A stretch of 64,000 nt of DNA from a virus (IMGVR_UViG_3300044842_000168:11135-75134), one strand, 5' to 3'; counted from the stretch's first letter, positions 3 to 51,792 are shown. Notes: generated by a model not told the origin, from the sequence alone. Numbers and translations: made by a program.

Positions 3-1535
3 ACGGCAGCCGCGAAGGAGCTCACCGACATCCTCGTCAATGAGGTGTGGAAGGCGAACCAGATGGATCTGGAGGCGCCGATCGCCCACCGTGGCGCGCT
101 GGTGTGCGGGGACGCCTACCTGCTCGTGTGGCCGGGGGACGGCGACAACGGAGAGCCGCCGGTGGAGGTGTTCTTCGAGAGCGCCAAGACCATGCGGATC
201 TTCTACAGCGAGGAGGATGAGCGCACGCCGGTGTTCGCGGCGAAGATGTGGACGGAAAGCGAGGAGTTCGCAGTCCACGACGACGACAAGAGCAACCAGC
301 GCTGCCGCGTCAACCTGTACTACCCGGACCGGATTGAGATGTACATCTCCAATCCAGGTGTCGATCCGAACAAGGCAGAGAGCGATAGCGACTTCGCGCA
401 GTGGATCGAAACGCACGCCGACGACGAGGCCGAGGAACAGGAGCCGATCGACAACCCTACCGTGAGTGAGGAGCTGGTCGGCGCGCAGATGGCTTGGTAC
501 GGCACATACCAGGGCACCACCTACTCTGGTCCAGGCTCGACAATGCCCGGCCCGGACGCCTCGACGGACCCGGACCTAACCTCCAACGTGCTGGATCAAG
601 GCGGTACGGCGGTACAGGGCGATACATGGCCTGTCAAGAACCCGTTCGGCATCATCCCGGTGTTCCACCTGCGGACGGACCGCCCGTACGGCCGGCCGGT
701 GCACGCTGACGCCTACGGGCCACAGAACGCCATCACCAAGATCGCCGCGACGCAGATGAGCGCGACGGAGCTGCACGGCTTCACCCAGCGGTACATGCTG
801 ATGGAGGGGATCACCGACGACCTCTCGGACACGCCGGACTGGGACGACAACGACGCGGAAGACGGGAACGACCCGGCCCCGGAAGGTGGTCTCGCCAACC
901 GGATGGAGGGCGGCCCCGGCACGATCATCCCGCTGCACGGCGTGAAGAGCGTGGGGGAGTGGCCGGCCTCGCCGGTATCCAACTTCATCGATCCGCTGGA
1001 GTGGTGGATCAAGGCGATGTCGACGGTGACCGAGACTCCGCTGCAGTACATCGATCCGTCCGGCCAGCTGCCTTCCGGGGTGTCCCAGGCCGAGGCCAAG
1101 TCCCCGCTGATCGAGGACTGCCGTCAGCTCACGATGATGTTCACGCCGCCATGGGAAGAGGCGCTGGAGTTCGCGCTCCACATCCTCGGCCATGAGGACG
1201 CCAAGGTGCAGATCCGCTGGGCGCCAGTGAACTCGGTCCGTGACCTCGACGGTTGGCAGACCATCGAGGCACAGCAGGGAGCCGGCGTGCCGGTCCGCGA
1301 ATCCCTGATCGAGGCCGGGTATGAGGCTGAGGTCGTGGACGGCTGGATGAAGACGCTGGAGCAGAGCAACTTCAAGGGCCGCGTGGAGATACTGCAGATG
1401 ATCGCGACGGCCCTGCAGTCGCTCGGCGCGGCGGCGAGCCTCGGCGTCGTGGACGCGGCTGAGGTCAACAAGTTCGCAGCCCAGCTGCTCCAGGTGGACA
1501 TCCCCGAGGCGCCAGAGGAGGGCAGCAGTGGCTGA
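3..1535 (+). CDS. Portal protein (SPP1 gp6-like), 5' truncated by window edge
   Basis: Frame is open from nt 3; about 500 aa acidic protein with portal-like segments (HRGALVCGDAYLLVW, IIPVFHLR, W..ALEFAL, I.W.P); first gene of the head module. Confidence 0.85.
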   Translation, partial: TAAAKELTDILVNEVWKANQMDLEAPIAHRGALVCGDAYLLVWPGDGDNGEPPVEVFFESAKTMRIFYSEEDERTPVFAAKMWTESEEFAVHDDDKSNQRCRVNLYYPDRIEMYISNPGVDPNKAESDSDFAQWIETHADDEAEEQEPIDNPTVSEELVGAQMAWYGTYQGTTYSGPGSTMPGPDASTDPDLTSNVLDQGGTAVQGDTWPVKNPFGIIPVFHLRTDRPYGRPVHADAYGPQNAITKIAATQMSATELHGFTQRYMLMEGITDDLSDTPDWDDNDAEDGNDPAPEGGLANRMEGGPGTIIPLHGVKSVGEWPASPVSNFIDPLEWWIKAMSTVTETPLQYIDPSGQLPSGVSQAEAKSPLIEDCRQLTMMFTPPWEEALEFALHILGHEDAKVQIRWAPVNSVRDLDGWQTIEAQQGAGVPVRESLIEAGYEAEVVDGWMKTLEQSNFKGRVEILQMIATALQSLGAAASLGVVDAAEVNKFAAQLLQVDIPEAPEEGSSG

Positions 1536-2397
1536 GCGCGTCTATCACTGGAAGCATGGCTGGATACCGCTCACTCCTGAGGCAGCCGTCATCAAGGCGC
1601 ACGGCTCTAAGGTCGGGGCACAGAAGCTTCTGGTTGACAAGGAGGTCGCAGCCGTCGCAGCCGGCGAGAAGACGGTTGAGGAGGGCAAACGATCACTAGG
1701 CACCTTGGTGTGGAAGCCGAGTAAGCCTGGCAGGTTTGATGTACACGACCCAGAGAGCGGGAAGAAGCTCGGTACCGTCGTAAAGACGAAGCCCAACCAG
1801 TACTACGTGTTTGACTTGCAAGACAGGCGGATCTCTGAGGCGGTAGACCGCGAAGAGGCCAATCTGTATCTGCGTCCCGGTGCAGATTCGCGCGGCCGGC
1901 TTCGGGGACAAGCAGCTCTGGAGGCTACGGGGATAGGGAACAGTGCCGCCCTCGCGGAGTATCGCAAGAGCGGATACCGAACCGTCAACAAGGGACTTCG
2001 GAAGTACAAGGGTGATGCGTCGAAGATCCGCGACCCCCATACCAGGCAGCTAGTAGAGGATCTGCGGAAGGACTTCGCTGACGCCCATCCCGTCTCGGCC
2101 GATATCGCTGTGTTTCGGGGGATCAAGTATGCCGGGCTCCCCAAGGAATCCATGAAGGGTATGGAGTTCGTAGATCACGGCTTCGTCTCGACCTCGCCCA
2201 GCGCCGGACAGAGCCAGATGTGGGGACGGATGGCGGTCATGCGGATCACCGTCCCGAAGGGCACCAAGGCTGTCGCCATGGGGCACAAGATCTCTGATCC
2301 TGAGACCGAGATCCTTTTGGGTGATGGCACCAAGTTCCGCATACTCAGCGATGAGATCCTGGACGGCAAACGCACCATTGAAGCTGAGGTGATCTAG
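1528..2397 (+). CDS. ADP-ribosyltransferase (VIP2/C2/ExoS-like, R-S-E class)
   Basis: YRKSGYRTVNKGLR helix, VFRG (catalytic R), FVSTS (STS motif), PETEILL (ExE); GTG start overlaps the portal stop. Confidence 0.8.
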   Translation: MAERVYHWKHGWIPLTPEAAVIKAHGSKVGAQKLLVDKEVAAVAAGEKTVEEGKRSLGTLVWKPSKPGRFDVHDPESGKKLGTVVKTKPNQYYVFDLQDRRISEAVDREEANLYLRPGADSRGRLRGQAALEATGIGNSAALAEYRKSGYRTVNKGLRKYKGDASKIRDPHTRQLVEDLRKDFADAHPVSADIAVFRGIKYAGLPKESMKGMEFVDHGFVSTSPSAGQSQMWGRMAVMRITVPKGTKAVAMGHKISDPETEILLGDGTKFRILSDEILDGKRTIEAEVI

Positions 2398-2453: not shown

Positions 2454-3338
2454 ATGACAACGCCGGTTGACGTCCAGGCGGCCCAGGCACAGGCGAATGC
2501 TGATGTGCGGTCCGCTGCGCTCCGTGCGCTGGAGGCGAGTGTGCTGGCCGGGTTGTTGGCCGGTGTATCCATCGCGATGATCCGGCGACAGCTGTTGGCA
2601 GCAGCGGTGATCGGGACGTTCACGCTCGGGCTCGCCCGGCCGCTGATCGGGCGAGCCTTCTCGGGCGTGGACCTCAGCGCGTTGACGGCCGGCGGCGCCT
2701 CAGCGGTAGCGCTCGGCTCCAGCTTCGGCGGCTTCGCCTCGACGACTCCACCTGATCCGCCGGACATCGTAGCGATCCTGCGCGACGCGACGGCCCGCGC
2801 CCAGGCCGCGCTCGCCGTGGGCAGGAACCCACAGGAAAGCACCCTGACAGCCACAGGGAGCCTCGAACGCGGCCTGTCGGTGGTACGGGCCTCGGTGAAC
2901 GGCTACGTGGAGCGCGCAGCCGCTAAGCCGGCGATCGACGACCCCTCGCCGGTGATCTGGGTCGCAGAGCGGGACGCCTGTGTGGTGTGCCTGGCGTACG
3001 CCGGCCAGATCTCAACGGACGGTCGGTGGCCCGGCGGTCGGAGCTTCGATCCGAAGCGAACAGTGCACAAGGGGAAGCCGTTCGAAGGGCCGCCGGCCCA
3101 CCCGCACTGCCGCTGTGATGTGCAAAAGGTCGCCTCGGTGGAAGCCGGGCGGTTCCTGGCGCGAGCGCTGGAGCGCGAGGCGCAGCGATCGATCGCGAAG
3201 GGCTGGGCGCTGCCCAGCGAGGCCGACAGCGCGTCACGGCGTCGCGCCTTGGCCCGGCTGTTGAGCGGGCCGAACCTCCTGCCCAAGAGCGTGGTGGAGG
3301 AAGCACGACGAAACATGCCAACTAAGCTCGCTGCTTAA
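2454..3338 (+). CDS. MuF-like minor head / head morphogenesis protein
   Basis: WVAERDACVVC...PPAHPHCRC signature; lies between portal and scaffold. Confidence 0.75.
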   Translation: MTTPVDVQAAQAQANADVRSAALRALEASVLAGLLAGVSIAMIRRQLLAAAVIGTFTLGLARPLIGRAFSGVDLSALTAGGASAVALGSSFGGFASTTPPDPPDIVAILRDATARAQAALAVGRNPQESTLTATGSLERGLSVVRASVNGYVERAAAKPAIDDPSPVIWVAERDACVVCLAYAGQISTDGRWPGGRSFDPKRTVHKGKPFEGPPAHPHCRCDVQKVASVEAGRFLARALEREAQRSIAKGWALPSEADSASRRRALARLLSGPNLLPKSVVEEARRNMPTKLAA

Positions 3339-50042: not shown

Positions 50043-50558
50043 TTACACCTTCTCCAGATATCCGCGCCGCTCCAGCTCCTCCTGGAGCTTCGAAACCCTA
50101 TCGGACACCTGAGCGATGTCGGCCTTGCGCTCAACGTTCTCCTTGCGCAGCTTCTCCACGCGGCGGTTCAGGATCTCTTGCTGCTGCGCCAGCATGGCTT
50201 GCCGGTTGCGCATCTGTCGAACCTCTTCGCGTGTCAGAAGCTGGATATCAGTTCCCTCCAGGATCTCCTGGGCACGCTTGATCCGGCGCCGGGCGCGAAT
50301 CTGTTGCTTGTGCGAAAGCCGGTCGTGCTCCCGAGCCTCCACCATCCGGTATCCGACGCCTCGGACGTTTTCCAGCGTTCGCTTGTGCGATCGCTCCAGC
50401 TCACGAACGGCGCGCCCGACCGGGATGTACACACCACGTCGCGGAAGCTTCAGGATCTTCTGCAGCCTCTCGAACTTGATGACATCGCCGATATCCATCT
50501 TGGCAATGACCTCATAGACCAGCTCCCACTGGCTTTTCAGGCCCTTCGGCTCAAACAT
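50043..50558 (-). CDS. Winged-helix-like plus coiled-coil protein downstream of the pentamer array
   Basis: LENVRGVGYRMV wing-like motif, basic helix, C-terminal heptads. Confidence 0.6.
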   Translation of the reverse strand: MFEPKGLKSQWELVYEVIAKMDIGDVIKFERLQKILKLPRRGVYIPVGRAVRELERSHKRTLENVRGVGYRMVEAREHDRLSHKQQIRARRRIKRAQEILEGTDIQLLTREEVRQMRNRQAMLAQQQEILNRRVEKLRKENVERKADIAQVSDRVSKLQEELERRGYLEKV

Positions 50559-50592
50559 ACCATATTCCTGTCAACAGTCGGTTTGGGATCCC

Positions 50593-51127
50593 CTGCCCTG
50601 CCTAGCCCCACCCTGCCTAGCCTCGCCGTTCCGCGCCTGACCCGGCCAGTTCCATGCCAGACCCAGCCCCGCCGGGTTACGTGCCCGGTAGAGGTATGAC
50701 CCTCTACCGGGCTCCATGCCATGCCCTGCTCCGCCGCGCCCTGCCCCGCCTTGCCTAGCCCGGCCCTGCCCGGCCGCGTTTACGCGCTCCATGCCTTACC
50801 GAGCCATACCGTTCCTTGCACCGCCTTGCCGTTCCATACCGGACCCGGCCCTGCCTCGTTGCGTGGCCCAGAGAGTTTCGAGGCTCTCTGGGCCTCCTTG
50901 CCTTACCGCGCCCGGCCCTGCCGAGCCCAACCTGGCCGCAGCCACACCGCGCCGAGCCGAAGCCGAACCGCGCCGCGCCAGAGCTTGCCATGCCCCGCCG
51001 AGCCGCGCCCCGCCGAGCCTTGCCTTGTAGCGTGGCTCGGGGAGTTTCGAGGCTCCCCGAGCCTTCCATGCCCTACCTTGCCACACCGATCCGCACCCAG
51101 CCCTGCTGTGCCGAGCCTCGCCTTGCC
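50593..51127 (-). ncRNA. GGY-NN pentamer array (putative guide RNA precursor): five units, hairpin-separated
   Basis: 78 pentamers counted by hand (69 GGC/GGT-NN); three 30-nt hairpins at 51034-51063, 50865-50894 and 50683-50712, each followed by a 9-nt ACG linker. Confidence 0.8.
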
Positions 51128-51134
51128 GCGTGAG

Positions 51135-51725
51135 CTATTCGCCGAGCAGCTCGACCTTGGCGTCGAACCGCCCGTACATCCGGCGGAAGTCGCCGAGGCC
51201 CTCGAACCGGCCAGCGTCGGCGGCGATCCGCTCGAACTCCTCCAGCTCCATGATGGAGTAGTCCAACACGAAGTCGGCGGTGAACTCCCACTCCGGGAAC
51301 CACGGGCGGCAGCGTTCCACGCGCTGCTGGCCGATCCGGACGGTGCGGTAGTCCACGAAGGGAGACTCGCCGTCGCCCCACAACGCCTCCTTGTCGCGCG
51401 GGCCGGCGTAGAACAGTGGGGCCTGGAACGTCTCGATGGACAGCCCGCGCTCGATCTTCTTCCCGTTCTTGGTGATACGGGCGCCTCCCAACAGGCAGGC
51501 GAAGATGTTCTCGCCGGGGATGTAGGGGCCGATCTCCTCGTCGTAGTACAGCGCGGCCTCCCAGTCGATCCGCGCCATGGCGGCCCGATCCTCGTCGGTC
51601 TTGGTGCGCTTGGAGCTGAACTCCTTCATCGCCTTCGCGAACTTGTTGCTGGGCGAAGCCGCCTGTGCGCTGTGCATCAAGAGCGGCCGAGTCCCCTTGC
51701 CGGTGAGCCTTACCCTGTTCTCCAC
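51135..51725 (-). CDS. RAMP/Cas7-like protein (Vipr-like effector)
   Basis: VRLTG..TRPLLMH beta-1, PYIPGENIFACL (cf. RAMP P.IPGSS.KG), C-terminal Gly loop GRFEGLGDFRRMYGRF; 7 nt upstream of the array. Confidence 0.7.
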   Translation of the reverse strand: MENRVRLTGKGTRPLLMHSAQAASPSNKFAKAMKEFSSKRTKTDEDRAAMARIDWEAALYYDEEIGPYIPGENIFACLLGGARITKNGKKIERGLSIETFQAPLFYAGPRDKEALWGDGESPFVDYRTVRIGQQRVERCRPWFPEWEFTADFVLDYSIMELEEFERIAADAGRFEGLGDFRRMYGRFDAKVELLGE

Positions 51726-51772
51726 TGCGTTCCCCTTCTCACAAGGAATTGCAACTGAATTGAATATAGTCG

Positions 51773-51792
51773 GTAGACGGATTCGCGTCTAC
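51773..51792 (-). promoter_or_regulatory. 20-bp palindromic operator / promoter of the RAMP gene and array
   Basis: GTAGACG-gattcg-CGTCTAC; -10 TATATT 4 nt downstream. Confidence 0.75.

Follow-up and report, generated by a model that had tools for sequence, protein, structure and literature searches.

A GGY/NN repeat array of an uncultivated actinophage is very probably the vrRNA array of a type II-like VIPR locus

Introduction

On the minus strand of a viral genome sequence of 64,000 nt (IMGVR_UViG_3300044842_000168:11135-75134; hereafter the window), GGY/NN pentamers recur with a period of 5 at 50593-51127, in tracts interrupted by three perfect 30-nt hairpins. The question raised by this locus is what such an array specifies. 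The original prediction, made from the sequence alone, read it as several RNA guides with informative NN dinucleotides, structured boundaries and one target base skipped per NN.

An RNA-guided DNA silencing system of phages with repeats of this form, VIPR, is already known from preprints of 2026, and what is new here is another example of it. Vipr, a minimal RAMP protein with an RRM core, a G-loop and a thumb, binds vrRNAs that are encoded on the vipr strand in neighbouring intergenic DNA and are composed of 9–16 GGY/NN repeats and a structured 3′ tail. Double-stranded DNA is recognised through the NN dinucleotides, with one base skipped between pairs, and the operon also holds vap accessory genes, vap1 in the case of type II. 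The system has been worked out mainly in Escherichia phage SUSP1, whose arrays are transcribed and co-purify with Vipr (10.64898/2026.04.26.720920). Cryo-EM has placed one protomer on each repeat, named the residues holding G1, G2, Y3 and the skipped base, and shown that a 3′ pseudoknot caps the filament and that filaments dimerise through their 3′ ends (10.64898/2026.04.26.720927). The SUSP1 gene YP_009199429.1 is named as Vipr in a further study (10.64898/2026.10.15.759431). All of the VIPR literature is in preprint form, and its author groups overlap. As set out below, an uncultivated actinophage very probably carries a complete type II-like VIPR locus at 50043-51791 (minus strand), with 50593-51127 as its vrRNA array.

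Layout of the repeat array

Re-reading of the minus strand confirmed the five units of the original prediction, with their coordinates and pentamer counts:

51068..51127, minus strand: U1, 12 GGY/NN repeats
50898..51024, minus strand: U2, 25 repeats in three phase blocks (13+4+8) with 1-nt insertions between them
50791..50855, minus strand: U3, 13 repeats, of which 3 of 13 are degenerate
50716..50775, minus strand: U4, 12 repeats
50593..50673, minus strand: U5, 4+11 repeats without a structured tail, abutting the vap ribosome-binding site

Base identity at lag 5 was 0.50 in the array, compared with about 0.25–0.31 at lags other than multiples of 5, and in-phase GG pairs, which average 1.0 per 100 nt over the window (sd 1.6), rose to 18. 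Tract lengths of 12, 13, 12 and 11 repeats fall within the VIPR range of approximately 9–16, a range that U2, with 25 repeats in three phases, exceeds. The count of 25 pentamers with two 1-nt insertions proposed for U2 was correct, and the unit is made up of the three phase blocks. Similarly, U5 kept the coordinates proposed for a single unit of 16 pentamers but is split 4+11 around the sequence GGCAT-GGAAC, which follows repeat 4 and resembles a unit end. Degenerate repeats (AGC, GGA, GCT, TGC) are present in U1–U4, and ACGC or ACGT precedes all five units, U1 included. The proposed number of five guides is uncertain: U2 and U5 are composite, the boundary of U3 is weak and that of U5 is absent.

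Scanning the complete 75,134-bp virus record from which the window is taken revealed no second GGY/NN array. Weaker period-5 signals at 29.1 kb and 19.5 kb (plus strand) were due to GC-rich coding sequence and were rejected as arrays. No match was returned when the region was compared by blastn with 50,697 phage records.

Genes flanking the array

The array lies between two genes and downstream of a candidate promoter, in the order promoter, vipr, array, vap1 on the minus strand:

51763..51791, minus strand: candidate sigma-70-like promoter directly upstream of vipr, by consensus match only
51135..51725, minus strand: vipr, encoding a 196-aa RAMP protein (PHROG 4652, E 5.6e-52)
50043..50558, minus strand: vap1-like gene encoding a 171-aa putative winged-helix DNA-binding protein with a coiled coil (PHROG 5926)

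SUSP1 Vipr belongs to the same family, PHROG 4652. The 196-aa protein matched the SUSP1 gene YP_009199429.1 by tblastn, and BLASTP against SUSP1 Vipr gave 35 % identity (E 2e-36). Residues H18, K34, R140, D179, F180 and R181 align opposite the published GGY- and skip-base-contacting residues, which in SUSP1 are H17, K33, R138, D177, W178 and R179, so that F180 is an aromatic replacement of the tryptophan; H18, R140, D179 and R181 are invariant among 35 homologues. The Vipr of a relative (P0002) is 88 % identical. An AF2 model of the protein had a pLDDT of 94.8, and a fold search of the PDB with this model returned Csm3/Cas7 RAMPs for all of the top matches (E about 2e-7). By homology, the 196-aa protein is a Vipr RAMP, predicted to read GGY triplets. 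The recorded vipr protein (P0001, 180 aa) begins 16 residues downstream of a GTG start at 51725 (51678-51725); the longer, 196-aa form is favoured on the basis of the homologues and of the first beta-strand of the model.

PHROG 5926 also holds SUSP1 vap1 (E 1.1e-75). The 171-aa protein matched SUSP1 vap1 (BLASTP, E 4e-7) and gp77 of Gordonia phage MakoManhole, a 'DNA binding protein' (E 3e-12). In most loci of the clade the vap1 product begins with MFE. The candidate promoter agrees with the consensus at 9 of 12 hexamer positions, has a 17-nt spacer and was the sole match in 2.5 kb (shuffle mean 0.3); no terminator-like site was found within the VIPR locus. Since the flanking genes fit the published system, the locus is read as type II-like VIPR with the order vipr-array-vap1.

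Hairpins and unit boundaries

The following elements separate the tracts or precede the first of them:

51128..51148, minus strand: short stem before U1, ending in ACGC and overlapping the vipr stop codon (-6.1 kcal/mol)
51025..51067, minus strand: tail 1, GGAA, a 30-nt hairpin (51063-51034) and a 9-nt ACGC linker
50856..50897, minus strand: tail 2, GGA, a 30-nt hairpin (50894-50865) and a 9-nt ACGC linker
50776..50790, minus strand: weak boundary between U3 and U4, made up of GGA and a short spacer with ACGC at its end (-1.6 kcal/mol)
50674..50715, minus strand: tail 3, GGA, a 30-nt hairpin (50712-50683) and a 9-nt ACGT linker

Sequence and folding bore out the prediction that U1, U2 and U4 each end in GGA(A), followed by a hairpin of exactly 30 nt and a 9-nt linker beginning with ACG. 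Hairpin 1 has 11 bp and an 8-nt loop (-23.6 kcal/mol), hairpin 2 has 11 bp and the same 8-nt loop (-22.1 kcal/mol), and hairpin 3 has 12 bp and a 6-nt loop (-26.2 kcal/mol). Hairpins 1 and 2 had been described as sharing a loop, CCTCGAAA, on different but fully paired stems; this holds, with three stem pairs differing between them and compensation at all three. The stem before U1 has the same frame of a helix followed by ACGC that is seen in the linkers before U2, U3 and U5. A mini-hairpin proposed between U3 and U4 did not stand, being marginal in folding energy (-1.6 kcal/mol), and this boundary is better read as GGA and a spacer ending in ACGC.

The testable defining sequence features of VIPR are present at the locus, apart from 3′ tails that are weak on U3 and missing on U5. 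Perfect 30-nt hairpins after GGA are confined to U1, U2 and U4, and the 1-nt slips of U2, the weak U3 boundary and the tail-less U5 fit poorly with a tidy unit of one tract plus one tail. The safest reading takes the window hairpins as this phage's form of the 3′ tail that caps the filament; they may in addition be processing signals, one of the two roles named in the original prediction.

No tRNA was detected in the window by ARAGORN, and Rfam searches of the window and of four relatives gave only chance-level matches. A 14-nt motif common to hairpins 1 and 2 had 105 single matches in IMG/VR, which were dismissed as chance because no IMG/VR locus carried two copies. The self-complementary sequence UCGA occurs in the loop of hairpins 1 and 2 and also in the T-loop-like loops of the relatives described below. 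A loop-loop contact through UCGA is conceivable, as filaments dimerise through their 3′ ends according to the cryo-EM preprint.

Arrays in related loci

The set of related loci comprised 35 Vipr loci, from SUSP1, Gordonia phage MakoManhole, 29 IMG/VR contigs and 4 actinobacterial genomes; these were gathered with a closer homologue alignment (A2), a single-protein query having given none. GGYNN arrays were present in 28 of the 35 loci, on the vipr strand in all 28 and on the opposite strand in none. An array-first set was obtained by searching IMG/VR for eight consecutive GGCNN pentamers, which gave at least 120 loci (L110–L229). Among the 120 array-first matches listed, 71 had a Vipr-like ORF, located on the array strand in 69 of these, and 49 had no Vipr-like ORF in the fetched stretch. 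The latter could be solo vrRNA arrays or loci in which vipr lies outside the fetched stretch. Contigs with this pattern ranged in GC content from 39 to 76 %, with arrays of up to about 1.6 kb (L179:1959-3547) among the matches listed.

The actinobacterial relatives, from Micromonosporaceae, Streptosporangium and Nonomuraea prophages and soil contigs (L231–L293), encode Vipr proteins 45–60 % identical to that of the window. Among the relatives, 101 distinct tract-tail pairs had a median of 13 repeats (interquartile range 10–15, maximum 41); the tail started with GGA or GGG in 66 %, and the spacer ended in ACGC in 29 of 101. Like these relatives, the window has vipr, a multi-unit array and vap1, units that end in GGA and a last unit that enters the vap start. 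In six relatives read to the end of the array (L231, L232, L260, L261, L262 and L264) the last unit ends in GGA and enters the start of vap. The corresponding sites are 50559-50592 in the window and L260:2443-2470, L261:5807-5836, L262:5799-5828, L232:4848-4874, L231:5604-5630 and L264:1516-1541. Within the clade, the last tract, which has no structured tail, ends in GGA or GGG and enters the vap1 ribosome-binding site and start.

The expectation that related arrays would keep GGY constant and vary in NN was borne out by one pair of relatives, L260 and L264, and by that pair only rather than by this phage. Their Vipr proteins are 97 % identical and their tails 69–95 % identical, while between 2 of 15 and 9 of 16 NN units are shared. 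In L260:1614-2377 and L264:692-1460 syntenic tails accompany different guides, with units gained or lost.

The tail of the relatives

The main tail type of the relatives is approximately 54 nt long and consists of a 5-bp outer helix, a CTGGCAG connector and a 6-bp arm closed by a T-loop-like loop, TTCGAGN; two connector bases pair with the last two loop bases in a 2-bp pseudoknot. Sites include L260:1689-2377, L262:4692-5743, L264:772-1460 and L232:4655-4812. In an alignment of 30 distinct tails (A3), 96.4 % of cells were paired and 9 of 13 pairs had changed on both sides, values that none of 500 shuffles reached; slid controls paired at 37–49 %. G-U pairs are among the RNA-type covariation of these tails, and a compensated change in a pseudoknot pair was seen in one orthologous tail pair of L260 and L264.

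Unlike these relatives, the window has a continuous hairpin in place of the tail of approximately 54 nt with connector, T-loop and pseudoknot: its hairpins have no connector and no pseudoknot partner, and their loops are of 8 and 6 nt. A covariance model of the relatives' tail, run against the 3-kb region, placed hairpin 2 best (9.2 bits, E 0.39), hairpin 1 second (7.6 bits, E 0.85) and hairpin 3 at 5.5 bits (E 2.3), none of these being significant. The two kinds of tail have in common the GGA start, approximately the combined helix length (11–12 bp) and the ACGC end. Given scores of 5.5–9.2 bits and E values of 0.39–2.3, these sequence likenesses are no more than suggestive of homology between the window hairpins and the relatives' tail type. 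Other arrays, too, have tails that consist of a hairpin only (L237, L292, L174 and L120), and the SUSP1 tail has a pseudoknot of another kind.

The relatives' tail looks like a tRNA elbow (T-loop). It is conceivable, but rather unlikely, that the clade tails mimic the tRNA elbow and that the 11–12-bp hairpins of the window with ACGY are connector-less 'minihelix' versions of it. If so, the polycistronic array could be divided into single vrRNAs by the host's tRNA-processing enzymes RNase P and RNase Z instead of Vipr, in a natural parallel to the tRNA-guide arrays used in engineering. None of the three VIPR preprints (10.64898/2026.04.26.720920, 10.64898/2026.04.26.720927 and 10.64898/2026.10.15.759431) uses the word 'tRNA' in its main text, and 'RNase' occurs there once in all. 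The T-loop/pseudoknot tail, the most useful by-product of the analysis, and the cutting of the array are the only leads here that go beyond these preprints, and they pose a testable question about processing.

NN content and target searches

The NN content had been predicted to be A-rich, and A occupies the first NN position in 32 of the 77 dinucleotides (42 %). Scored against the composition of codon positions 1–2 of the phage, the 77 NN dinucleotides gained 8.4 bits (sense) and 14.3 bits (antisense) over background. Registers that include the wobble base scored from -16 to -59 bits and are rejected by the NN composition. A is in greater excess at the first NN position than codon composition predicts. 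As an indirect test, the NN composition agrees with the published rule of one skipped base and codon positions 1–2.

Target patterns were written as NN-x-NN for blocks of the array, the scans of collections used exact cores, and the collections are a thin sample of diversity. In the phage's own 75-kb genome, searches with the six blocks of 8 or more units (U1, U2a, U2c, U3, U4 and U5b) at skips of 0–3 gave matches no better than shuffles, in agreement with the original inspection by eye, which saw no convincing self-target in the window. At a 1-nt skip, the best matches covered 15–18 of 22–26 positions (12 of 16 for U2c), at or below the shuffle maxima; the search at skip 3 recovered the array itself. 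A lack of self-targets is likewise reported for the published VIPR systems. The same six blocks did no better than shuffles, at skips of 0–3, in 2.5 Mb of fetched loci. In IMG/VR, exact 1-nt-skip cores of 10 units from U1 and U4 and an exact 9-unit core of U2a had no match. An exact 9-unit core of U5b had one match (L336, 19 of 22 positions), which was rejected because approximately 1–2 chance matches are expected, the contig has 48 % GC and the skipped base falls on codon position 1. In approximately 400 Actinomycetes genomes, searched with up to 3 mismatches, U1 and U4 had no match and a reversed U4 control had 4.

The gapped search recommended in the original prediction thus returned no natural target for any unit searched at any skip length, and gapped hits were no better than shuffles in every collection, all of them thinly sampled. 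As no external target was found, the reading of the NN strings as decodable rests on homology. The predicted scheme of several guides, informative NN, structured bounds and one skipped base is, at its core, the published VIPR mechanism; its targets are the part that was not recovered.

Alternative explanations

The least plausible alternative, which we consider scarcely credible, is that the array is a simple-sequence expansion produced by slippage or a coding region rich in Gly, Ala and Arg. Tandem Repeats Finder does call period-5 stretches in the array, and ORFs of 61–104 aa cross it in several frames. However, the period is not a multiple of three, the 1-nt insertions break every frame, and the same grammar is found beside vipr in dozens of unrelated contigs. 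GGY alone is constant while NN differ from unit to unit. The comparison across loci already contradicts this alternative. Highly improbable, though less so, is that the pentamers are double-stranded DNA iterons of an origin, partition site or operator, bound by a winged-helix or replication protein, with cruciform-prone hairpins. This would suit the position of the array, in a replication module beside genes for an SNF2 helicase, an exonuclease and DnaE and directly upstream of the gene for the putative DNA-binding protein. It does not suit the co-orientation of arrays with vipr, with none on the opposite strand in 28 Vipr loci and 69 of 71 co-oriented in the array-first set, nor the RNA-binding RAMP fold of the partner protein. 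Moreover, the homologous SUSP1 arrays are transcribed and co-purify with Vipr, and the relatives' tails have RNA-type covariation with G-U pairs and a pseudoknot. A TRAP-like ring protein on triplet-repeat RNA was also considered and was displaced by the RAMP partner and the VIPR papers.

The remaining alternative accepts a VIPR-type array but holds that it is decayed or non-targeting, either a sponge or decoy that titrates Vipr or the remnants of old guides. No target was found for any unit searched, and the phase slips of U2, the degenerate repeats of U1–U4, the weak U3 boundary and the tail-less U5 could all be signs of decay; satellite-encoded decoy 'solo vrRNAs' have been reported (10.64898/2026.10.15.759431). 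Against this, vipr and vap1 are intact with their key residues conserved, the three hairpins are perfect with compensated stem changes, and degenerate repeats are frequent in working vrRNAs (10.64898/2026.04.26.720920). The target search, furthermore, covered a small sample of actinophage and host diversity. A decayed or decoy array is therefore considered improbable, and a complete type II-like VIPR locus remains the preferred reading.

Proposed mechanism and comparison with known systems

By homology with SUSP1 and with the VIPR of a Pseudomonas fulva prophage, the array would be transcribed and give several vrRNAs. Vipr protomers would polymerise along each tract, one per pentamer, so that each GGY is buried and each NN presented. 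If the skip rule extends to this clade, the resulting filament would bind double-stranded DNA with successive NN pairs one unread base apart, which in coding DNA would amount to reading codon positions 1–2. The expected outcome of binding would be transcriptional silencing of a competitor, be it a phage, a prophage or a satellite. The GGA and hairpin would serve as the structured 3′ tail that caps each filament and marks unit boundaries, and the ACGY linkers would mark the 5′ side of the next unit.

The locus resembles the type II VIPR of SUSP1 and of the P. fulva prophage in several respects: its Vipr falls in the same PHROG and shares the GGY-reading residues, a homologue of vap1 is present, tracts of approximately 12–13 units lie on the vipr strand, structured 3′ elements follow U1, U2 and U4, and there is no self-target. 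It differs from SUSP1 in its order, vipr-array-vap1 rather than vrRNA-vipr-vap1-array, and in tails that are plain 11–12-bp hairpins rather than a pseudoknot of roughly 40 nt. It also differs from both published systems in that GGC outnumbers GGT, one tract has 25 repeats with slips and the last unit has no tail; its host is a high-GC actinomycete, and the system is known from sequence. With class 1 CRISPR systems it shares a RAMP protein of Csm3/Cas7 fold, here predicted to polymerise on guide RNA with bases flipped at a fixed period, and structured elements that separate guides within one transcript, as the Cas6-type repeat hairpins do. However, the array is not a member of CRISPR. It has neither spacers nor direct repeats of 25–40 nt, and adaptation genes and a nuclease are absent; a phage encodes the system, three bases are sequestered in each 5-nt period, and the guide is noncontiguous.

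The locus provides a complete VIPR from an uncultivated high-GC actinophage, a host group absent from VIPR experiments so far, in a compact vipr-array-vap1 layout with unusually simple hairpin tails. It leaves the picture of VIPR function unchanged, the 'grammar' described in the original prediction being a restatement of the published model. It may be of use in asking what a vrRNA tail must do, in designing minimal tails for engineering and in learning which competitors are silenced by soil actinophages.

Other features of the window and of a related contig

Downstream of the VIPR locus of the Micromonosporaceae contig L260, at 3023-3136 (plus strand), there is a near-threshold match to the Rfam atpB RNA motif (33.6 bits against a gathering score of 37.4). 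In the window, a gene following the portal gene (1528-2397, plus strand) encodes a 289-aa protein whose C-terminal half matches PHROG 3895, 'ADP-ribosyltransferase exoenzyme toxin' (E 6.5e-16). The nearest isolated relatives of the portal protein itself (45-1535, plus strand) are those of Streptomyces phages KimJongPhill and Zuko (37–39 %). The portal of the window is also similar to those of Mulchroom and MiniFlayer, which are Streptomyces satellites (33–34 %); satellites are known targets of SUSP1 VIPR.
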